64,000 bases of DNA, from NCBI GenBank assembly GCA_964594835.1, contig CAZQNA010000001.1, forward strand, positions 128,001-192,000, read 5' to 3'. This document shows, one piece after another, positions 1,784 to 20,917 of the stretch (its first letter is position 1; the number at the start of each line of letters is the position of its first letter). Both the position numbers and the translations under genes were made by a program. The notes beneath the pieces were generated by a model. That model worked only from the letters and a program-made list of their open reading frames with translations. It had not been told where the DNA came from and did not search any database. The stretch is from an uncultured Nitrososphaerota archaeon. GTDB taxonomy: Archaea > Korarchaeota > Korarchaeia > Korarchaeales > Korarchaeaceae.

Positions 1784-4606
1784 TTGGCAGAGCGCGGTAT
1801 GCTGACCCCCACCGAGCCCCAGGAGATGGCCATTCCTCTGATCCTGAGGGGGGAGAACGTCCTCCTGATAGCGCCCACGGGGACGGGAAAGACCGAGGCC
1901 GCCCTCCTGCCGATGCTCGCCAGGATGATGGCCGAGGGGAGGGCCGCGGGGGGAGTCAGGATGCTGTACGTCACACCCCTGAGGGCCCTGAATCGCGACC
2001 TCATGCTCAGGATATCCTGGTGGGCCTCTCGCCTCGATCTAAGCGTCGCTGTGAGGCACGGGGACACGCCCGCAATAGAGAGGAGGGCTCAGCTGGCCAG
2101 ACCTCCGGACATACTGGTCACGACGCCGGAGACGCTCCAGATACTCCTGGTGGCGAGGAGGTTCCGCCAGCACCTGGCCTCGGTTCGGTATCTCATCGTC
2201 GATGAGGTCCACGAGCTCGCGGAGAGCAAGAGGGGCGCCCAGCTCTCCCTCGCCCTCGAGAAGCTCAAGGTCATGACGGGTGAGCACCCACAGATCGCTG
2301 GCCTCTCGGCGACCGTCGGATCCCCGGAGGAGGTGGCCCGATTCCTTGGGGGCTCCTCCCCGACGCCCCGCGTGGTGTACGTGTCCGCCGCGAAGACCAT
2401 GGAGATAGGGGTCGAGTACCCACTCCCCTCGCCCGAGGACGGGGAACTCGCCGCCAGGCTCTACGTGACCCCGGACGTCGCGGCCAGGCTGAGGAGGATA
2501 AGGGAACTCATACGGGAGGCCAAGACCGCCCTCATCTTCACGAACACCAGGTCCATGACCGAGATCCTGGGCAGCAGGCTGAGGATGTGGGACGCGAGCC
2601 TCGCCATGGCGGTTCACCACGGCTCTCTCGCGGCAAGGGCGAGGGTGACGGCCGAGAGATCCCTCAGGGAGGGGAGGGTTAGGTCCCTCGTCTCCACCAG
2701 CTCCCTGGAGCTGGGCATAGACGTCGGCCACGTGGACCTGGTGGTCCAGTACATGAGCCCCAGGCAGGCCACCAGGCTCGTCCAGAGGGTGGGGAGGAGC
2801 GGCCACAGGGTAGGGGAGGTGAGCAGGGGCGTCGTGATAGTCATGACCCCCGACGACGCCCTTGAGTCCATGGTGGTCAGGCGGAGGGCCCTGGAAGACA
2901 GACTAGAGGCCGTGAAAATACCCGAAAAGCCATATGACGCCCTCCTTCACGAGATAGTGGCCCTCCTCATGTGGAAGCCCGAGTGGACCGTTCCCGAGGC
3001 CCTTGGAATTATCAGGAGGGCGTACAACTACCGGCGGCTCGGGCCCGAGGAGCTGCTGGACCTGGTCAAGTTTCTGGCCAGCCTGCCCAGGAGCCCGGTG
3101 CTCGTCTCGGAGCCCACCCGCTTCAGGAGGGGGCCGGGGTTCTCCGGCCTCTACCCATACTACTTCGAGAATCTGTCCATGATCCCCGAAATCCGAGCCT
3201 ACCTCGTCGTGGATCAGGACACTGAGGAGCCCGTGGGCACGCTGGACGAGCCCTTCGTGGCGGAGAGGGGAGAGCCTGGGTCCAAGTTCATCATGGCCGG
3301 GGAGGTCTGGAGGATCGTCCAGATCTTCAGGGACAGGGTGTACGTGGTGAGGGACCCAGATCCGGAGGGGGCGGTCCCCCACTGGCTGGGGGAGGAGATA
3401 CCGGTGCCCTGGTCGGTCTCGCAGGAGGTGGGCCTCATAAGGGGAAGGGTGGCTGAGGCGATCTCCTCTGGGCTCTCTCGGCGAGAGGTGGCCAGGTCCC
3501 TATCCAGGGACTACGGGGTGGCGGAGGACACGGTCCTGAGGGCCATCTCTCCGACCGTGGAGACCGCAGAGAGGGGGCTGTCGGTTCCCACGCACCGGAG
3601 GGTGGTCGTTGAGGCCGTGGGGAACACGGTGATCGTTCACGTTCACGCTGGGACGCTTGCCAACAGGGCCCTCGCCAGGTACCTGGCAGAGATAGCGGCC
3701 CGAGAGACTGGAGGGGCCGTCGGCGTGGCCGAGGATCCGTACCGCCTGTACCTGACCGGTCGCCTGGTGACCCCGGGATTGGTCGCGGACGGCCTGGCGT
3801 CCCCTCCCACGGACGTGGGGGAGGTCCTGAGGGCGGCGGTCGAGAGGAGCGGATACTTCAGGTTCAGGCTCCTCCAGGCCGCCAGGAAGATGGGGGTATT
3901 GTCGAGGGACGCCGAGGTCACCCCCTCGGTCCTGGACAGGCTGAAGGTCAGCTTGGAGGGCACCCCGGTGTACAGGCAGGCGGTCAGGGACGTATTGGAG
4001 AGGGACATGTCCATACCCGGGGCAGAGGAGGTGATGGGCCGCCTGGCATCCGGGGATTGGGAGCTCGTCAACCTCGGCAGGACCGCCGAGCCCACCCCCA
4101 TCTCCAGGGACGCCCTGAGGTGGATAAGGGTCAGGGTGGAGTCGATCCCCCCGGACAAGAGGCGGCTCCTCAGGAGGGAGAGGCTGAGGGTGAAGATCCT
4201 CACGGAGACCGTGACCCTTGCGTGCCTCAGCTGCCGCGGATACGTCGAGGAGGTCGAGCCCTACGAACTCCCGCAGCGTCCGGAGTGCCCCCTGTGCGGC
4301 TCCAGACTCCTGGGAGTCTCCCGAGAGCCGGATATAGCGGTTGAGCAGGCCCTCTCCCTCTCTGAGCGGGCCCTGAGGTCGAAGTCCCGCCGGAGGATGA
4401 GGAGGATCGTCTCGGAGATCAAGATGACCGCCCGCCTGGTGGAGGCCCACGGGAGGCTGGCCGTCATGGCTCTTGCGGCGGGCATCCCGCCCAGGGCCGC
4501 CGAGGATATCTTGGAGCGGTCCGGGGGGAGTGAGGCCGCCCTGATCGACGCCATACTGGAATTCACGTCTCGCCGGAGGATCCGCGGGCGCCGAGGAGCA
4601 GGCTGA
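1784..4606 (+). CDS. lhr: Lhr-family SF2 helicase with C-terminal Zn ribbon
   Basis: APTGTGKT, YVTPLRALNRD, DEVH, GLSAT, SSLELGID, QRVGRSGH; CxxC...CxxC near C-terminus. True start probably upstream (see findings). Confidence 0.93.
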   Translation: MAERGMLTPTEPQEMAIPLILRGENVLLIAPTGTGKTEAALLPMLARMMAEGRAAGGVRMLYVTPLRALNRDLMLRISWWASRLDLSVAVRHGDTPAIERRAQLARPPDILVTTPETLQILLVARRFRQHLASVRYLIVDEVHELAESKRGAQLSLALEKLKVMTGEHPQIAGLSATVGSPEEVARFLGGSSPTPRVVYVSAAKTMEIGVEYPLPSPEDGELAARLYVTPDVAARLRRIRELIREAKTALIFTNTRSMTEILGSRLRMWDASLAMAVHHGSLAARARVTAERSLREGRVRSLVSTSSLELGIDVGHVDLVVQYMSPRQATRLVQRVGRSGHRVGEVSRGVVIVMTPDDALESMVVRRRALEDRLEAVKIPEKPYDALLHEIVALLMWKPEWTVPEALGIIRRAYNYRRLGPEELLDLVKFLASLPRSPVLVSEPTRFRRGPGFSGLYPYYFENLSMIPEIRAYLVVDQDTEEPVGTLDEPFVAERGEPGSKFIMAGEVWRIVQIFRDRVYVVRDPDPEGAVPHWLGEEIPVPWSVSQEVGLIRGRVAEAISSGLSRREVARSLSRDYGVAEDTVLRAISPTVETAERGLSVPTHRRVVVEAVGNTVIVHVHAGTLANRALARYLAEIAARETGGAVGVAEDPYRLYLTGRLVTPGLVADGLASPPTDVGEVLRAAVERSGYFRFRLLQAARKMGVLSRDAEVTPSVLDRLKVSLEGTPVYRQAVRDVLERDMSIPGAEEVMGRLASGDWELVNLGRTAEPTPISRDALRWIRVRVESIPPDKRRLLRRERLRVKILTETVTLACLSCRGYVEEVEPYELPQRPECPLCGSRLLGVSREPDIAVEQALSLSERALRSKSRRRMRRIVSEIKMTARLVEAHGRLAVMALAAGIPPRAAEDILERSGGSEAALIDAILEFTSRRRIRGRRGAG

Positions 4607-5135
4607 GCAGGCGCTCCACGTCGATCTCCACCCGAGTCCTCCACCCCATCTCGACCCCCTCCTCCGTCTCGGAGAGGTAGCCGTGCCTGATCAGCCTTGT
4701 GAGAATGCCGGGGACCTTCCAGTCCGGTAGCTTCGACTTCAGGAGGTCCTCCAACTCCTCCCTGCTCGCTCGCCCGCCCTTTGCGGATATCAGGGCCACG
4801 CAGGCCGCCAGCGCGGCGAGCTCGTCTATCCTCCAGCCAGACCCCCTCACCTCCGGCCAGTCGGGGGCCTCCCGGAAGGTGACGTAGAAGGTGGCCTCAG
4901 CGAACTCCTCCTCGCCCGCGTCCCGCCCGTCCGGAGCTTTGGCGACCACCCTGAAGCCTATGTCGGAGAGTTCCTCGTCTAGGAGGCGGAGAACGGTCTT
5001 GTAGTCCCTCCCGAGGGCCCTCCTCAGCTCCCACCCCTTGACCCCCGGCTTCGCGTGGCTCCTGAGGAGCAGCATGTGGGCCGCGCGCCTGACCTTCCTG
5101 CGCAGGTCCTCGGGCCCGCCCCTCGAGTCAGCCAT
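4563..5135 (-). CDS. Tandem winged-helix KITE subunit (MAGE/Nse3/Nse1-like)
   Basis: About 190 aa with two wHTH-like halves; C-terminal LIRHGYL...MGWRTRVEID; third gene of the SMC operon. Confidence 0.65.
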   Translation of the reverse strand: MADSRGGPEDLRRKVRRAAHMLLLRSHAKPGVKGWELRRALGRDYKTVLRLLDEELSDIGFRVVAKAPDGRDAGEEEFAEATFYVTFREAPDWPEVRGSGWRIDELAALAACVALISAKGGRASREELEDLLKSKLPDWKVPGILTRLIRHGYLSETEEGVEMGWRTRVEIDVERLLSLLLGARGSSGET

Positions 5136-5880
5136 CCCCACCACCGCCCACGTCGAGCCAGGTGACCACGGACCCCCTCAGGCCGCCGGAGCCCCCCGGC
5201 CTTACTATGAGGACCCTCCCGGTGGCCGGGTCTCGCCTGATCGAGGCGAATCCCTCCGAGATCAGGAAGCTCAGGACGTAGGCCCGCTCCGCCGCCTCCC
5301 ACGGGTCCCCAGCCCGGACGTACTCCAGGTAGTCGACCTCCCCGCGCTCCTCGAGCGCCTCGGCCAGCCGCCTCGCCTCCAGCTTCAGCCTGCGCTCAAA
5401 CTCCTCCCCAGCTGGGGGAGGCCCGGGGGCCCCCAGCTCGGTGGGCTTGGGCAGCCCCCGACGCCTGTCCGAGGCGGGCGGGAGCTCCATCCAGTACCTC
5501 ACGGCTGCCTCGAGGAAGGCGGGCGTGACCCCCCTGGCCTCTACTATCGGCCTCCACGCCCTTAGGAGGAGCCCGGCCAGGGCCTTAGGCTCCATGGCCT
5601 CGACCTTCAGGGCCACCAAGAGGGGGTCGACGAAGAGCCTCGATGCCCTGTGCTCGATCCACTCCTCCTGCCTCTCGACGACTCGGGACAGCCCGACCAG
5701 GGCCTCCAGGTCGAGGTTGATCTCGTCCCAGCTCCTGAGACGGGGGAACTCCTCCCTCAGCCTCGAGGCCAGCCTCACCACGTTCACGTCGAAGGGGTCC
5801 ACCCTGCCGGAGAGGGCCTCCCTGACAAGCTCCAGGATCCTCTCGAAGAGCTCCCTCCTGGCCCTGCCCGATCGGCTCAC
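5128..5880 (-). CDS. Kleisin subunit (ScpA/Nse4-like)
   Basis: N-terminal VDPFDVNV (ScpA-like); C-terminal ERAYVLSFLISEG wHTH (Nse4-like); overlaps the SMC stop. Confidence 0.75.
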   Translation of the reverse strand: MSRSGRARRELFERILELVREALSGRVDPFDVNVVRLASRLREEFPRLRSWDEINLDLEALVGLSRVVERQEEWIEHRASRLFVDPLLVALKVEAMEPKALAGLLLRAWRPIVEARGVTPAFLEAAVRYWMELPPASDRRRGLPKPTELGAPGPPPAGEEFERRLKLEARRLAEALEERGEVDYLEYVRAGDPWEAAERAYVLSFLISEGFASIRRDPATGRVLIVRPGGSGGLRGSVVTWLDVGGGGDG

Positions 5881-7601
5881 GCGCTCACCACCCTCGAGAT
5901 CTCCCCGACCCTCTGGACGAACACCAGGTGGACGGGGCCCTCCACCCTGGGGGGCGGGCCCGGCGTCACCAGGATGCTCTGCCCTCCGGACCTCGCCAGG
6001 ACCCTGGCGAACTCCCTGAGCGCAACCTCCCTCCTCTCCGGGTCCATGTGGACGTCGAACTCGTCTATGACCCTTATTGGGGACCTGACGTGCCTCTGGA
6101 GGCTGAGCATGAAGGCCACAACGGTGGTCGCCCTCTCCCCCCCGCTCAGGGCCCTCGACTCCAGGGGGACCGGGTCCATGCCTCGGAAGCCGGCGGCCAC
6201 CTCGAGCCCCGCCGTCTCAACGTCGTCTCCGTCCACGAGCTTGACGTAGCCGACCCCGCCCAGCCTACCCAGTATCTCCGCGAACTCCCGGTCGACTTCG
6301 GAGATGAGCCCCCTCACCTCGCGCCTCCAGAACTCGGCCCTCTCGCTCAGGGCCTCCAGTAGCCCCCTCCTGTTCTCCTCCAGCCTATTCAGCCTCTCGC
6401 GTATCTCCCTATAGGTCTCCAGGTAGCGGTGGTACATCCTCTCAACGTCCTCCGAGACGTCCCCAAGGGACGCCAGCCGGGCCCCCACAAGCTTGAGCTC
6501 GTCGGCCACCTGCTCCGGATCCCTGAGCCTGCCTGCCGGCCGCTCGAGGTGCTTGGCCTCCCCCTCAAGGGCCGCGAGCTCCGACTCGGCCTTCCTGAGC
6601 CTGGCCCTCAGGCGGGATGCCCTCGCCCTGAGGTCCCTGAGGCGGTATTCCAGGACAGCCCTCTGGACGGCCGATTCGACTATCCGCCCGTGGAGATCGA
6701 GGACCCTCCGCCAGAGTTCTCCCCAACCCCCTTCGACATCCCGGGAGCCCAGCTGGAGGAACTCCCGCTCGAGCCCCTCGAGGGTCTCGCTCAGCTCGGC
6801 GATCTCAGCCTCCACGCCCTCTGACTCCCTCTGGACGGAGTCCAGCTCATCCTCAAGCTGGGAGACCAGCTCCCTCTGACGCTCGTATCGAGCCCACGCG
6901 AGCTCCGCCCTGAGCCTCCTCGCCCTGTCCTCCAGACGCCTCTTCTCCAGGAGCCTATCGTACTTCTCCTTCCACACGCTCAGGGTCTCTTCCGCCCTCC
7001 TCAATAGGTCCTGCGTCTTGGAGACCTCTTCCTCGACGCCGCTGAGCTCTCTCATTGCCTGGAGAACTCTCTTCCTGTACTCGTGCAGCCCGGCCGCCTC
7101 CTCGACCATGACGAGCCTCTCTTCCGGCCCCATGGCGATGAACTCGGACATGGTGCCCTGGTGCATGATCACAAGCATGTTGTCGGGGTCCACGCCCATC
7201 CTCGCCAGCCGGCTGGTCAGCTCGTACTTGTCAACGGTCCTGTAGTTCAGCTCGAACCAGTAGGTGCCGTCGGCCCTGATGTACCTGGACACCCGCACCT
7301 CGTCCTCCCTGAATCCCGGCACGGGGCGCCTCCCGTCGACCGGCCTGTTGTCGAACACCACGGTGACCCTGGCGAGGTTGCTGCCCCTCCTGATCAGGTC
7401 CCTCAGCCTCCTGGACCTCTCGGTCCTCGTCTGGCCGAGGGCGATCGCTATCGCGAGCACGATCGAGGACTTGCCGGCGCCGTTGGGCCCGGCGATCAGG
7501 TTCAGTCCCGGGGCAAACGGTATCCTCGAGTACTCGTGCGACATGAAGTTCTCAAGCACGACCTCCCTGATGTAGGTCCCCCTCGGTCCCCCCTGATCCA
7601 C
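5877..7601 (-). CDS. Short SMC-family ATPase (SMC5/6 / ClsN / Arcadin-4-like), about 574 aa
   Basis: LENFMSH, GPNGAGKSS, Q-loop IMHQG, long heptad coils, LSGGE, PIRVIDEFDVHMD; GTG start at 7601 after GGAGGTG. Confidence 0.92.
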   Translation of the reverse strand: MDQGGPRGTYIREVVLENFMSHEYSRIPFAPGLNLIAGPNGAGKSSIVLAIAIALGQTRTERSRRLRDLIRRGSNLARVTVVFDNRPVDGRRPVPGFREDEVRVSRYIRADGTYWFELNYRTVDKYELTSRLARMGVDPDNMLVIMHQGTMSEFIAMGPEERLVMVEEAAGLHEYRKRVLQAMRELSGVEEEVSKTQDLLRRAEETLSVWKEKYDRLLEKRRLEDRARRLRAELAWARYERQRELVSQLEDELDSVQRESEGVEAEIAELSETLEGLEREFLQLGSRDVEGGWGELWRRVLDLHGRIVESAVQRAVLEYRLRDLRARASRLRARLRKAESELAALEGEAKHLERPAGRLRDPEQVADELKLVGARLASLGDVSEDVERMYHRYLETYREIRERLNRLEENRRGLLEALSERAEFWRREVRGLISEVDREFAEILGRLGGVGYVKLVDGDDVETAGLEVAAGFRGMDPVPLESRALSGGERATTVVAFMLSLQRHVRSPIRVIDEFDVHMDPERREVALREFARVLARSGGQSILVTPGPPPRVEGPVHLVFVQRVGEISRVVSA

Positions 7602-12703: not shown

Positions 12704-13930
12704 GTGTCCGCGCGCTCGAGGGTTCCACTTGTTGTGGCCAAGGGTCGGAGGACGGGGCCCGAGCACGAGGCGGCCGCACTAACCCTGTTCGCTTGGAAGA
12801 ATTCCAAGAGAGGTAGGTTTCCCTGGTCCAAGTTGGAGAAGCCGTGGGGGATAGGGATAGTCGAGCTGAGGCTTGATGTCCTCGAGGTCGGGGGGCGTTG
12901 GAGGGTCCTCTGGGATCCCTCTGGCCTCCTCTCCCTGAGGCTCTCGATGGCCGACAGGGAGTCGCTGGCCTCGGCGCTCAGCTTCCTGGAGGAGGCCATC
13001 GTGGCGAGCCCCGAGTCGCTCACGAAATCCGTTGAGTTCTCCTACTCCAGGATAAGGGCCTCCAGGAGGGAGCTAGAACTCACCGGAATCCCAGACCCCA
13101 GGATCATTAGCTGGGTTGCCTCTGAGGTCGGCGAACACGAGGGCCTCCCGGGCGGGGCGCTGCCGCCGTCCCTCAGTGAGAGGAGGGCTAGAGACACCTT
13201 CAGGGCCCTTAGGGAGATGGCCGGTGATCTGAGGAGGGATGTTGAGCTGATCAAGAGATATCGGGCCAAGCTGGAGGCGCTGATCAGCTCCGTGAGGAGT
13301 CTGGAGGAGTCGGAGAAGTCGGCGGTCTCCAGGGCGTACGCGGCCAGGCTCGCCGAGGCGGAGGTCCACCTCTCGGGCGATGAGCTCGCCCTTAGGAGGA
13401 GCCAGCTCAACTCAGAGCGGCAGGAGAGGATCTCGGAGATAGAATCCAAGTACGGCAGGCTCCTCGATGCCCTTGAAAATCTATCTCAGGAGCTGGAGGA
13501 GGAGCTGAAGTCGAGGGAGCTTATGATCTCCCTCAGCGAGCGCGCGGGGGAGGTTCAGCCAGCCTCGGTCCCTATGGGAATCGTCCTCTTCGGTCGCGGG
13601 AAGAGGCAGAGGCTTGAGATGCTCGCGCCCTGTGAGCTGACGGAGCCGGGCCTAGGAACCAAGCTGAGGAGGGTCTTCGGCGGTCGCCCGATCCCGCTGG
13701 AGCCGAGAGGCTGGGGAGAGGCCGTGGTCGCCAGGGTGAGGGAGGCCGCCGACGAGAGGAGCATGATACACTCCGGGCTCGTTACGATCGTGGAGAGGAA
13801 GAACCTCCTCCGGAGCCCCAACTTCGTTGAGCTCTCCGGCGCGGGCCTCCTGAAGTTCGCCGAGTGGGGCTACTTGCCGGATGAGTGGGTTGGAGAGGCC
13901 TTGGCCGTCGTCGTGGGTGAGGGCGAGTGA
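12704..13930 (+). CDS. Hypothetical protein with central coiled coil
   Basis: 408-aa ORF with host codon usage; heptad-rich E/R/L middle. Confidence 0.7.
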   Translation: MSARSRVPLVVAKGRRTGPEHEAAALTLFAWKNSKRGRFPWSKLEKPWGIGIVELRLDVLEVGGRWRVLWDPSGLLSLRLSMADRESLASALSFLEEAIVASPESLTKSVEFSYSRIRASRRELELTGIPDPRIISWVASEVGEHEGLPGGALPPSLSERRARDTFRALREMAGDLRRDVELIKRYRAKLEALISSVRSLEESEKSAVSRAYAARLAEAEVHLSGDELALRRSQLNSERQERISEIESKYGRLLDALENLSQELEEELKSRELMISLSERAGEVQPASVPMGIVLFGRGKRQRLEMLAPCELTEPGLGTKLRRVFGGRPIPLEPRGWGEAVVARVREAADERSMIHSGLVTIVERKNLLRSPNFVELSGAGLLKFAEWGYLPDEWVGEALAVVVGEGE

Positions 13931-14060: not shown

Positions 14061-14405
14061 TCACTCCCCAGATCCGTCCCCTTCCCCTTCGAGGACGCGA
14101 AACTCGATCATCCAGAGCTGGTCCTCCTCCAGGACCCTCTTACCGTAGTGTCTCTTGAGCGCCTTCACCAGCTCCTCCTTGGACTCGAACCCGTCCCTCC
14201 TGGCCTCCTCGTCGGTCAGCCCCGAGAGCCTCACCCTGGTGACCCCCTCGACAACGGCCTCCCCGAAGACCTCACCCCCGGCTACCAGGTCGACGACGTC
14301 CCCCGGCCTGAGCCTGGTGGTTCGCCTCAGGGTGGTCACCTTCTCCCCCCTGAGGATGCGGTCCACGTACCTCTTGTCAAACCTCAGCGACTTCCTCCTC
14401 CCCAT
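14061..14405 (-). CDS. ASCH domain protein (YqfB-like)
   Basis: LRF...DRILRGEKVTTLR, PGDVV, LTDEEARRDGF. Confidence 0.9.
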   Translation of the reverse strand: MGRRKSLRFDKRYVDRILRGEKVTTLRRTTRLRPGDVVDLVAGGEVFGEAVVEGVTRVRLSGLTDEEARRDGFESKEELVKALKRHYGKRVLEEDQLWMIEFRVLEGEGDGSGE

Positions 14406-16656
14406 AGTGGACCACCAGCTTCCTGACCGCCCCCCGTACGACGTCCATGACCTCGACCACCTTCTTAACCTTCAGGAGCCCCGCCACCATGCCCCACCCC
14501 CTACCCTGAAGGACCCTGGCCAGCAGAGCAGCCTCCTCCTCAGCCGAGAGGGGCCTGACCTTCGGAGGGGAGAGGAAGTAGGACCTGACGATCTCCCAGA
14601 CCGCGTCGGACGCCATCTCGTAGGTGTTGTACCCCGCCAGGTAGTCCCTTAGCCTGAGCTTCTGACTGAACCTGAGCCTCGGCCTCGCGCCTCCCCAGCT
14701 CGGAGACAGGAGCATCCTGGCGACCCAGGGGGACAGATCGAAGTACACGTCGTGCAGGGAGTTCAGGAGTCTCCTCTTGAACTCCCCCAGTATCTCACGC
14801 ACCATGTCCCGAGCCTGCCTGCTGATCGGGAGCACGACGAACACGCTGTACTCTCCCGAGACAGGGTTCCTCTGCGGGCTGATGTGCACGGGCACGAAGC
14901 CCGCCCTCACCCAGAACCTGAGGAGTTCCTCGCTGACTCCGAACCCCGCCCCGACCCAGTCTACCCCGGCCTCCTCAGCCTCGGAGATCAGGGACCTGAG
15001 CGCCCTCGTCCCCAGGCCCCTGCCCTGAAGGGCCGGATGGGTGGCTATGCGGACCACCCTCCAGCCCCAGAGCTTCGGGAATCCCTTGTGGCCGTAGTGT
15101 GCCAGGAGCCTCGAGGGTATCATGTGACCGGGGGGATTCTCTGTCCTCCTGAGGATGCCCTCCACGTACCTCCTGCTGAGCCTCCCCTCCTCGCATATCT
15201 GAATTGAGACTACGGGCTCGCCGTCGATCAACAGGGCCCTCGCGGAGTGGTGGGGCGCGTCCAGGAGTGTCGCCAGGTCGTTGGGCCTGTTCCTGTAGTG
15301 AGCCAGGACGTATATCCCGTAGAACTTCCTGAGGAAGTCCTCGTCCGCCGATGGGAGGTCCACCCTGACGTACCTCCCCGACTCCGGGGACGCGTCCTCG
15401 GGGGGATCCCCAGGCTCCGCGTCGAGCAGCAGGAAGTCGTAAAGCCACCTCTCAACCGGGTCCCCCTCGGGGTACCTTATCGGGGTCCTCATCTCCACCC
15501 TCTCGACGGCCACACCCTGAAGCGACTCGAGCCTCGACATGAACCTCTGAGAGAAACCCCTGCCGGCCCCCTCGTACCCGTGGATTGTGCTGGAGAAGAT
15601 CGCGAGCCTGCTGGACCCGAGCACCCTGAAGAGCAGGTGCGTCGGGATGCCGGCCGCCTCGTCAACCACCTTCACCCGGACGTTAGAGTCCACTAGGCTC
15701 AGGGGAGTCAGGTAGAAGGCCGACCTCCCCCTGGCGGTCACCGCCACGACCTCTCCATCCCTCACCACCTCCCGGCCCCGTATCCCCAGGGCCTCCAGGC
15801 CCCTTGAGACGAACTTGAACAGGGTCTGAACCGCGGGGAGTGTGGGGGCCGTGACCGCCACCCCCCTGACCCCCCTCCTCGCCATTAGGTGGGCTATCCC
15901 GAGCCCGAGAGCGGCGGACTTTCCCCTCCCCCTGTTCGCCACCACGAGGAGGGCCGCCCTCCCGGAGACCCTCGAGAGCCTGTCGATGGCCTCCACCACC
16001 TCGACCTGCTCGGGGGTCAGTGCGAGCGCCAGTACGGGGTCCTCCGATTCGGGCCGCTCGAGCTCCCTCCTGGCGGCCTCTCTTGGGCGCCCCTCAACGC
16101 TTCCCGAGGACAGGTCGACGAACCTCGCCCCCTCAGCCCTCCTGACGGTCTCTAGGAACCTCCTCTTGAACTCGCTCCTGACGTCGGACTCTCTGTAGGG
16201 GGGCGACGCCAGCCTCCTCTGGAAGTCGGTCAGGGTTCTGAGCCACTCCTCGACTGGGGGTATCGCCATCACGACGAGCCCGCCCCCCCTGACGGTCTCC
16301 ACAAGTCTCCCCACGTCATTCGCCCTCATCTGGACGGAGAAGTCCGTCAGGAGGAGATCCCAGGTTCCCCCCATGGCCTCCTCGCTCCTGTCAAAGTCTA
16401 TTGGGTGGACGCGGACGTCTCCGGGCACCTGGCTGGCGAGCCTTCGACCGCCCAGCACCTCGTCCCCAACCCAGACGTTGGAGTAGAGGGCGTCGACCCC
16501 CTGGCCAGTGACCCGCCGGTAGACCCTGGCCACCCTTGCCAGGGCGTCCACCCGATCCTCGCAGGAGACGAGGAGCAACCTCCGCTCTCCACTGGCCACG
16601 GCCTCCGCGCTGAGTTCTGCTGCCACCTCCTCGACGAGGTCGCCCAAGATGATCAC
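14377..16656 (-). CDS. tmcA: RNA cytidine N4-acetyltransferase TmcA/Nat10
   Basis: ETVRGGGL, ANRGRGKSA, VDEAAGIP, STIHGYEGAGRGF, PIRY...DPVE, AHYRNRPNDL, RIATHPALQGRGLG. Confidence 0.95.
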   Translation of the reverse strand: MIILGDLVEEVAAELSAEAVASGERRLLLVSCEDRVDALARVARVYRRVTGQGVDALYSNVWVGDEVLGGRRLASQVPGDVRVHPIDFDRSEEAMGGTWDLLLTDFSVQMRANDVGRLVETVRGGGLVVMAIPPVEEWLRTLTDFQRRLASPPYRESDVRSEFKRRFLETVRRAEGARFVDLSSGSVEGRPREAARRELERPESEDPVLALALTPEQVEVVEAIDRLSRVSGRAALLVVANRGRGKSAALGLGIAHLMARRGVRGVAVTAPTLPAVQTLFKFVSRGLEALGIRGREVVRDGEVVAVTARGRSAFYLTPLSLVDSNVRVKVVDEAAGIPTHLLFRVLGSSRLAIFSSTIHGYEGAGRGFSQRFMSRLESLQGVAVERVEMRTPIRYPEGDPVERWLYDFLLLDAEPGDPPEDASPESGRYVRVDLPSADEDFLRKFYGIYVLAHYRNRPNDLATLLDAPHHSARALLIDGEPVVSIQICEEGRLSRRYVEGILRRTENPPGHMIPSRLLAHYGHKGFPKLWGWRVVRIATHPALQGRGLGTRALRSLISEAEEAGVDWVGAGFGVSEELLRFWVRAGFVPVHISPQRNPVSGEYSVFVVLPISRQARDMVREILGEFKRRLLNSLHDVYFDLSPWVARMLLSPSWGGARPRLRFSQKLRLRDYLAGYNTYEMASDAVWEIVRSYFLSPPKVRPLSAEEEAALLARVLQGRGWGMVAGLLKVKKVVEVMDVVRGAVRKLVVHYGEEEVAEV

Positions 16657-16666
16657 CCAACCGCGG

Positions 16667-17398
16667 TCACAGCGCCAGACCGAGGGCCGTCGGGGCGAAC
16701 TTGAGCAGGACCAGCGCCGCGGCCAGGGAGGCCGACCTACCCCTACTCAGGCCAAACATCGTCCTGAGGAGTTCCGTGAGGAGGAACCACTGCCAGGCCG
16801 CCACCAGGCCGGAGAGGGAGAGCATGACGGGAGAGCGCTCCACCAGGCTGGTCACCTCCCCGACCTGCGAGGAGTACGGGTTGGATAGGTCTATCGTGAT
16901 CACGACCCTCTGCGGGATCGTCAAGGCCGTAGCGATCACGCTCAGGAGAGACCTAACGCCCTCGGTCAGGTAGACCACGCCAAACCCGGTTAGGGTGGAG
17001 GATGGGCTCACCGGGTCGCCTCCAGCGAGCCTCGCCGCGACGTGAACGAGCCCCCCGGCGATGAAAGCGACGACGACCCCGGAGACCACCGTGGTGACCC
17101 CGACGAACGCCGGGCCGCTGAAAACCCTCAGGGCGGACTGGATCTGCTCGGCGCTCACGCCCTCCGGCGGGTTGACGAACCGGTACTCCACCCTCGACGC
17201 GATCAGCGCGCCTCCGGCGCCCCCAAGCGCCGAGACCGCCAGAGCGGCCATCAGGAACAGCCTCAGCCTGGGCCGACTGAGGCCCCCCCTGAAGACGGAC
17301 CACGGATCTCGGACCGGGGAGAGGAGGTACTTGATCGGCCCGACGCTCTCCCCTGCACGGGCCTCGCCGACCTCGAACTCCCCGCCCCCCTGGGACAT
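16667..17398 (-). CDS. Yip1-domain membrane protein
   Basis: LLSPVRDPWSVF N-terminal motif followed by about 5 TM segments. Confidence 0.65.
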   Translation of the reverse strand: MSQGGGEFEVGEARAGESVGPIKYLLSPVRDPWSVFRGGLSRPRLRLFLMAALAVSALGGAGGALIASRVEYRFVNPPEGVSAEQIQSALRVFSGPAFVGVTTVVSGVVVAFIAGGLVHVAARLAGGDPVSPSSTLTGFGVVYLTEGVRSLLSVIATALTIPQRVVITIDLSNPYSSQVGEVTSLVERSPVMLSLSGLVAAWQWFLLTELLRTMFGLSRGRSASLAAALVLLKFAPTALGLAL

Positions 17399-17449
17399 CG
17401 TGCCGCCCCCCTGAGTCGACTTAAAAAGGCCGGGGGGGCGACGCACACC

Positions 17450-17524: not shown

Positions 17525-17583
17525 CACGGTTTAACCTGATCCGACGCGATAAGTTGAATAGCCTCCCAGCCCAGGCTCCAACC

Positions 17584-18150
17584 GTGAGGTCGGTAGATCT
17601 CCACAGGGAGTCCGCCAGGTCCAGGCTGACCTTCGCGGTGTTCGTCGTCAGCTCCTCGAGGTACGAGTTGAAGTCCCGGGGGGAGGCCTTCGTCGACGAG
17701 AGCGGAGACGTGGCGGTCAGCCTCATAGAGTCGGCTGGCCACGTCGTCGTGAGGAGGGACATCCTCCCCGACTCGGTCCCGGAGATAGGGGAGGCGCTGA
17801 GGGCCGCCGCCGGCAGCGCGGACGTGGTCCTCTTCATCGGCGGTACGGGTCCCCACCCGAGGGACGTCACGGTCGAGGCCGTCCGACCCGCGTTCTCCAA
17901 GGAACTACCCGGCTTCGGGGAGCTCTTCAGGATGCTCAGCTACGAGCAGGTGGGGCCCGCTGCCTTCCTGTCGAGGGCCACGGCGGGCGTGGTCGAGGGG
18001 TCCGTGGTCTTCTGCCTCCCAGGCTCCCCTGACGGGATAAGGCTCGCCCTCGAGAGGCTCATCCTGCCCGAGGCGGAGCACGCCGTCTGGGTGGCGAGGG
18101 GCTACAGGCACGCTCACGGCTCGGGTCGCCAAGACGACCCGGGGGGCTGA
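17584..18150 (+). CDS. moaB: Molybdopterin adenylyltransferase MoaB/MogA
   Basis: DESG, ILPD, GGTGPHPRDVTVEA, KELPGFGELFR, LSRATAG, FCLPGS. Confidence 0.92.
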   Translation: MRSVDLHRESARSRLTFAVFVVSSSRYELKSRGEAFVDESGDVAVSLIESAGHVVVRRDILPDSVPEIGEALRAAAGSADVVLFIGGTGPHPRDVTVEAVRPAFSKELPGFGELFRMLSYEQVGPAAFLSRATAGVVEGSVVFCLPGSPDGIRLALERLILPEAEHAVWVARGYRHAHGSGRQDDPGG

Positions 18151-18152
18151 GC

Positions 18153-20156
18153 TCAGCCGACCCGGGGGTCGTGGATTATCTCCCCGGTCCTTTCGTCCGC
18201 CTCTATGCCGGGTAGCCTGCTTAGGGCCTCGCGGAACTCGTCGGACCTTAGGGTCTCGAGGACGACCTGGACCCCGCGCTTCGAAAGGCGGTCGATCCTC
18301 ACCAAGAAGTCGTACCGCTCCCTCCAGAGGGGTATGAAGTCCAGCCCCCTCAGCCTCGCGGCCGCCTCTATCCCGGGGCCGATGTCCACGATCCCTTCCC
18401 TGACCGCCGAGGCCACCGCCGCGTGGGACTTCGCGGCGCTCATGTACCCCCGGATCGACGACCTCAGCTCCTCCGCGCTCACCCCCCTCTCCCCTGCCAA
18501 CCTCTCGGTCAGCCAGTCCATCAGGATCCTGGTTCCCGAGCCCGGGTTTCTGTTCAGCATCCTGACGTCGGGCCTCAGGAGGTCCTCCACTCCCCCTATT
18601 CCCTTGGGGTTCCCGGGGGCGACCATCAGGCCCTGGATCCTCGAGTACCCCCTGACGAGCAGGGCGATCTTGGACACGCCCATGGGCTCGAGGAACGGGA
18701 GGTTGTACTCGCCCGTGGTCGGATCCAGGGCGTGGACCCCGGCCAGGTCGGCCTCCCCCTTCCTCACGGCCAGGAACCCGCCCGTCGAGCCCACGGAGAC
18801 CACCTTCACCCTGCCCCCCCTGAGCCTCGGCCTCGCGATCCTGAGGAGCTCCTCCAGCCCGAGGCAGTGGCTCCCCACGATGGACAGGTCCGCAGGCCCC
18901 CTGTCCGGGTCTAGGAGGGTGACCACCACTGGCTCGCCCTCCTCCAGGTACTCCACCTCCTCCGGCACTTCTAGGATCCCGTCGGCCCGGGCAAACGTGG
19001 TTATGGCCTCAGAGCCACCGGGAACCTTGAACGCCAGCACCTCGCCCTCGGCCGTCCTCACGAGGTGCACCGGGAGGAAGTCCCGCCTCCCCCTGGCGAC
19101 CCTGGTCCTCTCGGCCAGCTTGGCCCTGACCCTCAGGGACTCAGGCTCGGGCTCCAGTCCGGCCAGGTACCTGATCACGGGCGCGACGAACACCCTGTAG
19201 GCGGTCATCGCGCTGGTCGGGTTGCCTGGCAGTCCGAAGGCGAGCTTTCTGCCGACCTGAGCCATGACGGTGGGCTTCCCCGGGTGCATGGCCACGCCGT
19301 GGACGAACACCCCGGGCGCCCCGATCCCGTCCAGCACCCTGTAGATGACATCCCCCGCCCCCGCGCTGGTGCTTCCCGAGACGACGAGGAGGTCTGCCAC
19401 CGACAGCCCCCTCTCGATCGCCCCCGCTATCTCAGACTCCACGTCGCCGACTATACCAAGGTAGATGGGTTCCCCCCCGTCCCCCCTTATGGAGGCGCAG
19501 AGGGCCGGGCCGTTTATGTCGTAGATCCTCCCGTACTCGAGGTCCTCCCCCTGAGCGGCCAGCTCGTCTCCAGTGCTGATCACGGCGACCCTCGGCCGGG
19601 AGTAGACCCTCACGGTCCGGATGCCGGCGGCGGCCAGCACGCCGACCTCCCTCGGCCCGACGACGTCTCCCCTCCAGGCCAGGGTCTCTCCGAGGTTGAC
19701 GTCCCTGCCGGCGGACTGGACGTTCTCGCCGGGCGCGACGGCCCTGTACACGAGGACCTCTCCACCAGACCGGCGGGTGTACTCGACCATCACGACCGCG
19801 TCGGCCCCCGGGGGCAGGGGCGCCCCAGTCGCTATCTCGACGGCCTCACCCTCCCCCACCGACCCGCTGAAGGGGTGGCCGGCCGAGGCCACTCCCACGA
19901 CCCTGAGCGCCGCGGGCCTCTCCTCGTCTGCCCCGAAGGTGTCCTCCGCGCGCACCGCGAACCCGTCCTTGGTGGCCCTGTCGAAGCTGGGGATGTCCAC
20001 CGGGGACACCACGTCCTCCGCCAGCACCCTGCCCAGCGCCTCGGAGAGCGTGACCTCCTCCACCCTCCTTTTCATCTCCCGAACGCGGGACCAGATCTCA
20101 TCCCTGGCCCCGTCTACAGAGCTGAGCCTCCTGAAGATCCTCCTATCTTCCCTCAT
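18153..20156 (-). CDS. moeA: MoeA fused to PBP/LysR substrate-binding domain
   Basis: DGFAVRA, EIATGA, ISTGDEL, HGVAMHPGKP, GLPGNP; C-terminal GSHC, VGSTGG, NRNPGSGTR. Confidence 0.93.
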   Translation of the reverse strand: MREDRRIFRRLSSVDGARDEIWSRVREMKRRVEEVTLSEALGRVLAEDVVSPVDIPSFDRATKDGFAVRAEDTFGADEERPAALRVVGVASAGHPFSGSVGEGEAVEIATGAPLPPGADAVVMVEYTRRSGGEVLVYRAVAPGENVQSAGRDVNLGETLAWRGDVVGPREVGVLAAAGIRTVRVYSRPRVAVISTGDELAAQGEDLEYGRIYDINGPALCASIRGDGGEPIYLGIVGDVESEIAGAIERGLSVADLLVVSGSTSAGAGDVIYRVLDGIGAPGVFVHGVAMHPGKPTVMAQVGRKLAFGLPGNPTSAMTAYRVFVAPVIRYLAGLEPEPESLRVRAKLAERTRVARGRRDFLPVHLVRTAEGEVLAFKVPGGSEAITTFARADGILEVPEEVEYLEEGEPVVVTLLDPDRGPADLSIVGSHCLGLEELLRIARPRLRGGRVKVVSVGSTGGFLAVRKGEADLAGVHALDPTTGEYNLPFLEPMGVSKIALLVRGYSRIQGLMVAPGNPKGIGGVEDLLRPDVRMLNRNPGSGTRILMDWLTERLAGERGVSAEELRSSIRGYMSAAKSHAAVASAVREGIVDIGPGIEAAARLRGLDFIPLWRERYDFLVRIDRLSKRGVQVVLETLRSDEFREALSRLPGIEADERTGEIIHDPRVG
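19989..20061. repeat. 73-bp exact direct repeat, copy 1 (in moeA-PBP)
   Basis: Base-for-base identical to 22009-22081. Confidence 0.9.
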
Positions 20157-20917
20157 ACGATCCCCCACGCCTGCAGCGCCATCCTGATCGCCACCAGCAT
20201 GAGGAAGGCGGCGAATATGCGTCTGACCGTCGTCCCCCTCAGCCCCATGGTCTTCTTGGCGCCCGCCCTGGCTCCCAGGACGAGGCCCGCCGCCGTTATC
20301 AGGGCGATGAGGGGGTGCCCCCGGCCCTCCATGTAGTGGGTCGTCGCCCCCACGGAGGACGTTATGGCGATCATGAACATGGAGGTGGCGACCGCCGTCT
20401 TGGCCCCCAGGCCGCAGACCAGGACCAGTATGGGGACCTTGATGGTCCCTCCCCCTATGCCCAGGAGTCCGCTGAACGCCCCCGCGAGGAAGGACACGCC
20501 CATCGCGACCGCTAGCCTCGAACACCCCCTCCCAACGCCGTCGTCCGAGCCCCCGCGCCTCCGGAGCATGTTCACCGAGACCACCCCGAGGACGACGGCG
20601 AAGGCCATCCTCAGCGCCCTCTCCGGGACCGCCGTCACCGCCCTGGCCCCCGCGTAGGCTCCGATTGTCGTGGTGAGTTCAAGCGTGATGCCCAGCCTGT
20701 AGTCGATGAGGTCCCTGTACACGAGGATGGAGCTCAGGGCCGTGAGCGGCATGGTCATGAGGCTGGTGGCGACGGCAGACTTCATGTCCATCCCGAGCAC
20801 CAGGCTGTAGAGGGGGACCAGCAGAGTACCGCCGCCCGTCCCCGTCATGGCGCTCACGGCCCCTATCCCCAGTCCGCCGACCGCCGCGAGCAGAACCCTC
20901 AGGTCCACTCTCTCCAC
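20153..20917 (-). CDS. TSUP/TauE/SafE sulfite-exporter family protein
   Basis: GTGGGTLLVP and GIGGGTIKVP repeats, AVATS motifs, about 8 TM. Confidence 0.9.
   Translation of the reverse strand: MERVDLRVLLAAVGGLGIGAVSAMTGTGGGTLLVPLYSLVLGMDMKSAVATSLMTMPLTALSSILVYRDLIDYRLGITLELTTTIGAYAGARAVTAVPERALRMAFAVVLGVVSVNMLRRRGGSDDGVGRGCSRLAVAMGVSFLAGAFSGLLGIGGGTIKVPILVLVCGLGAKTAVATSMFMIAITSSVGATTHYMEGRGHPLIALITAAGLVLGARAGAKKTMGLRGTTVRRIFAAFLMLVAIRMALQAWGIV

Follow-up and report, generated by a model that had tools for sequence, protein, structure and literature searches.

Why does a heat-loving archaeon begin the gene for a small ASCH protein inside the last codons of tmcA, the gene for its RNA cytidine acetyltransferase? 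We asked this of a Korarchaeota genome (GenBank assembly GCA_964594835.1), in a stretch of 64,000 nucleotides (contig CAZQNA010000001.1, positions 128,001 to 192,000), which we call the window. Enzymes of the Nat10/TmcA type produce N4-acetylcytidine (ac4C) in RNA with the use of ATP and acetyl-CoA. The reversibility of ac4C and its fate after RNA decay are live questions. A first-pass annotation of the window had proposed that the ASCH protein is an eraser, reader or salvage partner of the acetyltransferase. Judging by its resemblance to the E. coli enzyme YqfB, the ASCH protein is most likely an ac4C amidohydrolase that is made together with TmcA. The linkage of the genes, the residues, the YqfB-like fold and the biochemistry of relatives point to an ac4C module, as proposed. 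Of the proposed roles, that of a pure reader appears the least supported, because the catalytic residues are strictly conserved.

The larger gene of the pair encodes three Pfam TmcA domains (Table 1), and their order, TmcA_N, P-loop helicase and GNAT, is that of TmcA/Nat10. The GRGKS Walker A motif and the Q-G-R-G-x-G acetyl-CoA loop of the GNAT domain define this family. In an alignment of seven Korarchaeota TmcA sequences, R242-A248 (the Walker A region) and G547 and G549 (the acetyl-CoA loop) are invariant. The protein matches Korarchaeia homologues over its full length at 48-83% identity. Its score against the NCBIfam model NF041296, the haloarchaeal TmcA equivalog, is 471.7 bits (E=3.4e-141, profile positions 2-740 of 746), and the cut-off of 700 is not reached. 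By sequence, its homology is clear, but it comes from another lineage and is not the haloarchaeal equivalog.

The small gene matches the Pfam family ASCH (PF04266; E=4.1e-16, 60 bits against a cut-off of 21.2) over profile positions 1-103 of 103, and with the TmcA domains this bears out the identities assigned to both genes in the first-pass annotation. It is the sole PF04266 match in the host genome, a 1.82-Mb assembly in 24 contigs that is estimated to be 97% complete. We found no C-terminal helix-turn-helix (HTH) domain (AAAD_HTH, ~80 aa) on the protein, whose 114 aa end 8 residues past the ASCH profile. Its only NCBIfam match is the YqfB model NF003443 (24.9 bits, E=1.9e-05). Because this score is below the cut-off of 93, we place the protein in an archaeal sister subfamily within the Thr-type clade, and do not consider it a YqfB equivalog.

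Sequence and structure comparisons lead to YqfB. When PDB sequences are searched with phmmer, the YqfB entries 9kyf (E=0.029) and 1te7 (E=0.11) rank first, as weak matches. BLASTP aligns the protein to E. coli YqfB at 26% identity (2e-07), and hhalign aligns a profile of 71 subfamily sequences to YqfB with 98.3% probability (E=1.1e-14) over 95 colinear columns. The AlphaFold2 (AF2) model (pLDDT 86.3) predicts a PUA-like beta-barrel with flanking helices. The best Foldseek matches of this model are the YqfB structures 9kyf and 9kyh (for 9kyf_A, E=8.4e-08, TM 0.78/0.87 and rmsd 1.9 Å over 107 columns). The top 15 matches (E<=0.001) are ASCH structures without exception, and PUA-related matches rank low. 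Like the window protein, YqfB (9KYF, 9KYH, 1TE7; NF003443) is a single ASCH domain of about 100-115 aa, and the two align end to end. Human EOLA1 and the ASCH domain of TRIP4, which belong to the Glu-type clade, share the ASCH fold and the octapeptide Lys and Arg with the window protein. At the nucleophile position, however, Thr is replaced by Glu, and their structural matches are weak (5y7d, TM 0.50/0.38; TRIP4 entries, E>0.1).

The activity and mechanism of YqfB as an ac4C amidohydrolase have been described, with a Lys-Thr-Glu triad and an Arg oxyanion hole (PMC6972931). According to the available text of that work, the K21A, T24A and R26A mutants are inactive, E74A is about 1000-fold slower (about 0.1% of kcat) and H70A lowers activity about tenfold. 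The G-x-K-x-x-T-x-R pattern and the acidic residue in LTDEEARRD, both pointed out in the first-pass annotation, are present in the translation of the ASCH gene. Three alignments (phmmer, hhalign and BLASTP) place K22, T25, R27, D71 and Y87 on YqfB K21, T24, R26, E74 and Y89, and so uphold the earlier correspondence of the published triad to Lys, Thr and Asp. By analogy to YqfB, K22 is most likely the catalytic Lys, T25 the nucleophile and R27 the oxyanion hole.

These residues are conserved in relatives. K22, R27 and Y87 do not vary in 71 short sequences of the subfamily, where T25 is at least 90% conserved. A separate alignment of 26 ASCH sequences consists of 24 tmcA-linked rows (one of which, L020, duplicates L003) and two unlinked Korarchaeia copies. 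F9, K22, T25, R27, G72 and Y87 are present in all 26. The D71 column is not invariant (D in 21, E in 2 and A in 3). A word-indexed homologue search returned four close proteins, and the close ASCH homologues bear Korarchaeota names. With HMMER, an exhaustive search of 1.84 billion representatives yielded 339 relatives with E<=0.001, and 68 of them have E<=1e-10. Two length classes can be distinguished, one of about 105-125 aa and one of about 170-200 aa. Other architectures occur as well. A 556-aa protein on a 2999-bp contig (P0089) has a C-terminal ASCH domain at aa 459-553, following ~450 residues without a Pfam match or similarity to TmcA, and two proteins of ~220-235 aa (L034:8206-8868 and P0044) contain two ASCH-profile stretches, i.e., a tandem ASCH.

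The ASCH start lies within the 3′ end of tmcA on the same strand, and the coordinates and frames of the two open reading frames agree with the 29-nt overlap that had been noted. A GGTGG sequence resembling a Shine-Dalgarno motif precedes the ASCH start within tmcA. A similar purine-rich motif is present at 18 of 21 linked loci, using a loose pattern with no shuffle control, so this count is descriptive. Four sequencing runs cover the stretch, all of them DNA and from two studies, and no RNA run is among them. Two of the four may have been the source of the DNA itself. The arrangement suggests that tmcA and ASCH, in this order, are most likely a two-gene operon with coupled translation.

We then surveyed the synteny of tmcA and ASCH, a check that the first-pass annotation had suggested. 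Among 40 Korarchaeia genomes, including that of the window, 29 have both genes, 6 only tmcA, 2 only ASCH and 3 neither. The two genomes with ASCH and no detected tmcA are incomplete (70% and 80% complete). The genes are adjacent and on one strand in 13 of the 29 genomes that hold both. By genus, adjacency is found in 5/5 genomes of g1, 5/5 of g5, 1/1 of g6 and 2/2 of g7. In genus g3, the genes are unlinked in all 16 genomes that have both, being on different contigs or, in a one-contig genome, ~800 kb apart. In genus g4, tmcA is present and ASCH was not found (4/4 genomes). Given the absence of ASCH in g4 and its separate location in g3, ASCH is dispensable for TmcA.

The length of the overlap is partly preserved. 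It is also 29 nt in genomes G005, G006, G039 and G041, as well as in G038 if a later in-frame ASCH start is used, which is the start suggested by the alignment. In G001, G002 and G004, the overlap is 4 nt.

Genome G041 represents a second Korarchaeota class, and it too has the tmcA-ASCH pair. Its tmcA-linked ASCH protein (L015:2085-2702, minus strand) belongs to the long forms, with 205 aa, and its C-terminal extension is Lys-rich and entirely helical. The helices are predicted at about residues 134-194 (AF2 pLDDT 91). A full-length alignment pairs this protein with a 190-aa protein of Infirmifilum lucidum, at 33% identity. A Foldseek search with the model of the long form matched only the ASCH half. 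The extension is probably the HTH to which a preprint of February 2026 (bioRxiv 10.64898/2026.02.27.708502) attributes strong tRNA binding by two archaeal ASCH proteins, Afu3ASCH and Pku4ASCH.

In genus g3, the ASCH gene belongs to a different cluster (L009:1215-4190, L011:1927-4664), which consists of an ACT-domain gene, a DUF711 gene (PF05167), ASCH and a gene for a thioredoxin-reductase-like flavoprotein. The genes are separated by gaps of 1-6 nt or overlap by 4 nt. These neighbours are uninformative as to ac4C.

To look beyond Korarchaeota, we used a TmcA alignment with one genome per species, which gave 572 confirmed loci; of these, the 80 nearest to the query were retained. Because only the closest loci were kept, this sample is biased toward relatives of the Korarchaeota TmcA. 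An ASCH-subfamily match, based on a hidden Markov model and flanks of up to 4 kb, occurs at 23 of the 80 tmcA loci, and at 21 it is immediately 3′ of tmcA on the same strand. The two others are at L034, where ASCH is 2 kb downstream, and at L078, where it is divergent and about 50 nt upstream. The 57 loci with no match include three (L044, L062 and L072) with under 400 nt of downstream sequence, which cannot be judged. The ASCH start is inside the tmcA 3′ end at 20 of the 21 linked loci, with overlaps of 4-71 nt (e.g., 8 nt in L024), taking the start codon nearest to the start of the domain. The lone linked locus without an overlap is L025, with a 43-nt spacer.

The linked loci carry the labels of Korarchaeota-type metagenome-assembled genomes (MAGs), Bathyarchaeia, Methanomethylicota, Nezhaarchaeota, Geothermarchaeota, a Nitrososphaerales MAG, Scotarchaeum, Archaeoglobus, Ferroglobus, Geoglobus, Alkanophaga and a MAG labelled Thermoplasmatales. 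In a FastTree tree of 87 TmcA rows, we found no linkage in the 30 Thermoprotei, the 6 Thermococci and the 3 judged Nanoarchaeota. The linked or unlinked state changes at least 12 times on this tree, and 8 changes are forced by well-supported branches; the tree does not distinguish gains from losses. The recurrence of this adjacency in several lineages of archaea goes beyond chance. The linkage is conserved, and the objection from non-conservation that the first-pass annotation raised against its own proposal does not apply.

In an even draw of Archaeoglobi, tmcA and ASCH are adjacent in 22 of 31 genomes. Most of these 31 have 2-3 ASCH paralogues, with a range of 1-4. Where the genes are adjacent (22 genomes), the linked ASCH is short (frames of about 108-138 aa) and of the Thr type, and most genomes add a long copy of about 180-234 aa. 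Among the 80 loci, L078 is the sole case of a head-to-head arrangement (ASCH at 3580-3951 on the minus strand, tmcA at 4001-6298 on the plus strand). A Thermococcus genome (G044) has seven ASCH matches, including a tandem pair (C18:20096-20404 and 20439-20738), and no ASCH-subfamily match within 4 kb of tmcA at its locus L043.

What could an ac4C amidohydrolase do beside TmcA? We tentatively favour the possibility that its main role is to clear and recycle ac4C nucleosides or nucleotides from degraded, TmcA-modified RNA. TmcA would put ac4C into RNA, and the breakdown of this RNA would release ac4C nucleosides or nucleotides. The ASCH enzyme would then hydrolyse ac4C to cytidine and acetate: Lys22 would serve as the base, Thr25 would be the nucleophile, Arg27 would form the oxyanion hole, and Asp71 and Tyr87 would assist. 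Clearance would be needed because the acetyl group blocks normal cytidine salvage. Translational coupling would match the clean-up capacity to the abundance of TmcA.

Several lines of evidence favour free ac4C as the substrate. With free ac4C, YqfB reaches a reported kcat/Km of about 2e6 per M per s (PMC6972931). An August 2026 preprint (bioRxiv 10.64898/2026.08.01.741249) reports that human EOLA1, whose activity on ac4C is also given in the February preprint, deacetylates free ac4C, that rRNA and tRNA ac4C do not change upon loss of EOLA1/2, and that cytidine deaminase is inactive on ac4C. RNA ac4C is also reported as unchanged in E. coli lacking yqfB (February preprint). The window ASCH protein itself is near neutral (net charge +1, pI 8.0) and has no RNA-binding extension. 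Finally, we favour free ac4C because a bulk eraser made together with its own writer would be futile.

Other observations weigh against the recycling role or against the comparison with YqfB on which it draws. The score against the YqfB model is far under its curated cut-off. Two YqfB residues that are 100% conserved in YqfB-like proteins, Asp27 and His70, are replaced in the window protein by Arg28 and Glu67, respectively, although a third such residue, Tyr89, is kept, and the equivalent of Glu74, which is Asp in the window protein, is Ala in 3 of the 26 aligned sequences, which come from two genomes within a single genus. Most members of the archaeal subfamily are basic (the 26 sequences have a median pI of 9.66, and 59 of the 71 have a pI >9), in contrast to the acidic YqfB (pI 4.68), and the tmcA-linked copy of G041 has its helical extension. 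Biochemically, all 19 ASCH proteins of the February preprint, among which A. fulgidus is represented by three and P. kukulkanii by six, are reported to strip ac4C from E. coli tRNA in vitro. One of them, Afu2ASCH, hydrolyses free ac4C fully within 4 h and also deacetylates tRNA efficiently, according to the same source. Afu2ASCH is probably the orthologue of the tmcA-linked ASCH, because the short linked copy and the long copy of Archaeoglobi fit the short Afu2ASCH and the 177-aa Afu3ASCH. In the thermophilic GKTR group of that preprint, Afu2ASCH, Afu3ASCH, Pku2ASCH and Pku4ASCH share the Thr-type octapeptide with the window protein, but Afu3ASCH and Pku4ASCH have the C-terminal HTH that it lacks. 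As to salvage, we found no uridine/cytidine kinase of family PF00485 in the 97%-complete genome, where other kinase families were not searched, and one gene with a deaminase fold (PF00383). Cytidine kinases of the PfkB type exist in archaea.

Part of this evidence speaks for a second role, which we consider possible but somewhat doubtful, namely that the ASCH protein erases or proofreads ac4C while it is still in RNA, for instance at misplaced, unstructured or condition-dependent sites, with a fixed ratio of writer to eraser tuning the pattern. The results of the February preprint on tRNA point in this direction. Beyond the in vitro activity of all 19 proteins, most of them reduce tRNA ac4C when overexpressed in E. 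coli, and Afu2ASCH clears ac4C12 in the D-stem of wheat tRNA. In addition, EOLA1 is reported to deacetylate unstructured, but not structured, ac4C-RNA in vitro (August preprint). Among the linked copies, several have poly-basic tails in the 26-sequence alignment, in keeping with the basic character of the subfamily, and one has the helical extension mentioned above. Start and stop overlap strictly at 20 of 21 linked loci, which suggests that the two proteins are needed in fixed stoichiometry. However, co-expression of a writer with a bulk eraser would amount to a futile cycle, and RNA ac4C was unchanged by loss of the enzymes in the two organisms tested in vivo. Moreover, the in vitro results on tRNA come from one preprint with mesophilic substrates, Afu2ASCH caused no shift of tRNA in an electrophoretic mobility shift assay reported there, and the window protein is near neutral and lacks an extension.

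The near-universal position of the ASCH start in the stop region of tmcA, from Korarchaeota to Archaeoglobi and Bathyarchaeia, leads to a more specific idea, which we regard as unlikely. TmcA could acetylate broadly, and ASCH could strip exposed, unstructured or wrong cytidines, such that only structurally protected ac4C persists. If such an editing system existed, a proofreading circuit would set the pattern of ac4C sites in archaea and possibly its response to temperature, and lineages with unlinked genes, such as Thermoprotei and Thermococci, would regulate the two activities separately. The introduction of the February preprint notes that archaeal thermophiles have more ac4C at higher growth temperature.

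A different substrate, for instance another N4-acylated cytosine or a small acetylated molecule, or an adjacency that reflects shared regulation only, seems improbable to us. YqfB is reported to accept structurally different N4-acylated cytosines and cytidines (PMC6972931), the YqfB equivalog model gives a low score, and the g3 ASCH gene lies between ACT/DUF711 genes and a thioredoxin-reductase-like gene. However, the tight overlap recurs specifically with tmcA in distant lineages, Korarchaeia with ASCH and no detected tmcA are limited to the two incomplete genomes, and every relative whose assay is reported hydrolyses ac4C.

We modelled a complex of TmcA (759 aa, 7-row alignment) and ASCH (114 aa, 71-row alignment), and obtained an ipSAE of 0.00 in two runs with no controls, which is no evidence either way. 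A non-catalytic ASCH protein that reads ac4C or recruits RNA as an adaptor subunit of TmcA, comparable to THUMPD1/Tan1 as the partner of eukaryotic Nat10, would suit the gene overlap, which is common where two genes encode subunits of the same complex, and the PUA-like fold, given that some ASCH proteins are reported to bind nucleic acids, but it is very improbable since a mere binder would not need the Lys, Thr and Arg of YqfB hydrolysis that all 26 sequences have, since tmcA occurs without ASCH in g4 (4/4) and unlinked in g3 (16/16), in 30 Thermoprotei and at 6/6 Thermococci loci, and since we found no TmcA-ASCH fusion among the longer ASCH forms searched, which is weak evidence.

The idea of a tmcA-ASCH pairing is not new, and is already in two preprints of 2026. 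The August preprint states in one sentence that ASCH genes of the YqfB clade share a conserved operon with TmcA/Nat10. It concerns the same gene pair and makes the same inference, that ASCH acts on ac4C made by the acetyltransferase; the word “archaea” is absent from its main text. In the available text of the February preprint, the genomic neighbourhood or synteny of ASCH genes is not mentioned, and the sole use of “operon” concerns RudS. As the general idea is in these preprints, the present locus adds detail and counts, but no new principle. The additions are per-lineage counts, the observation that the ASCH start is almost always inside the tmcA 3′ end, a Korarchaeota example and the lineage pattern of missing linkage (Thermoprotei, Thermococci, the relocation in g3 and the loss of ASCH in g4). 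In E. coli, yqfB lies between trhA and bglA, with no tmcA in the 20 kb inspected, whereas the window ASCH gene overlaps tmcA. That several archaeal lineages couple a writer gene translationally to a deacetylase gene is, on the genomic side, the strongest reason to think that both activities work jointly in vivo. Lineages suited to testing this are Archaeoglobi and Korarchaeota with the linked pair, compared with the Korarchaeia genus that has no ASCH.

Table 1 Positions of the tmcA-ASCH pair, its domains and motifs, and the gene next to the tmcA start, in window coordinates
Feature	Position	Strand	Basis
ASCH gene, 114 aa, ATG start; YqfB-clade (Thr-type octapeptide), predicted N4-acetylcytidine amidohydrolase	14061..14405	-	
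Tyr87, opposite YqfB Tyr89	14145..14147	-	alignment
L63-TDEEARR-D71; D71 opposite YqfB Glu74	14193..14219	-	three alignments
Octapeptide G20-E-K22-V-T-T25-L-R27 (pattern G-x-K-x-x-T-x-R)	14325..14348	-	translation, YqfB alignments
tmcA/ASCH overlap, 29 nt, different frames; ASCH ATG within the final 10 codons of tmcA	14377..14405	-	
GGTGG, Shine-Dalgarno-like, inside tmcA, 7-11 nt 5′ of the ASCH ATG	14412..14416	-	sequence reading
tmcA, Nat10/TmcA-type RNA cytidine N4-acetyltransferase gene, 759 aa, GTG start	14377..16656	-	open reading frame, Pfam, NCBIfam, homologues
GNAT acetyltransferase domain, best stretch aa 446-557	14986..15321	-	PF13718 (GNAT_acetyltr_2), E=3.3e-39
Acetyl-CoA loop QGRGLG in GNAT domain	15010-15027	-	translation
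NAT10/TmcA helicase (P-loop) domain, aa 238-412	15421..15945	-	PF05127 (NAT10_TcmA_helicase), E=7.1e-50
Walker A motif GRGKS in helicase domain	15916-15930	-	translation
TmcA_N domain, aa 14-181	16114..16617	-	PF08351, E=2.4e-28
Gene for Yip1-like membrane protein, 10 nt from the tmcA start	16667..17446	-	PF04893, 28.5 bits, just under the cut-off of 28.6

We now note properties of the surrounding genes. The Yip1-like gene may be co-transcribed with tmcA. In the 17 loci searched (L001-L017), a homologue lies 5′ of tmcA only in two loci of the same genus, and the gene is outside the conserved tmcA-ASCH pair. On the other side, a 408-aa open reading frame (12704-13930, plus strand) converges on the ASCH gene. 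Neither Pfam nor NCBIfam gives a match for it at E<=0.01, and it is kept, at 53-55% identity, in two same-genus loci only. Beyond the Yip1-like gene is a MoaB-type molybdenum cofactor gene (17554-18150, plus strand; PF00994, E=1.4e-32), which is adjoined by a 790-aa open reading frame at 18153-20525 on the minus strand.

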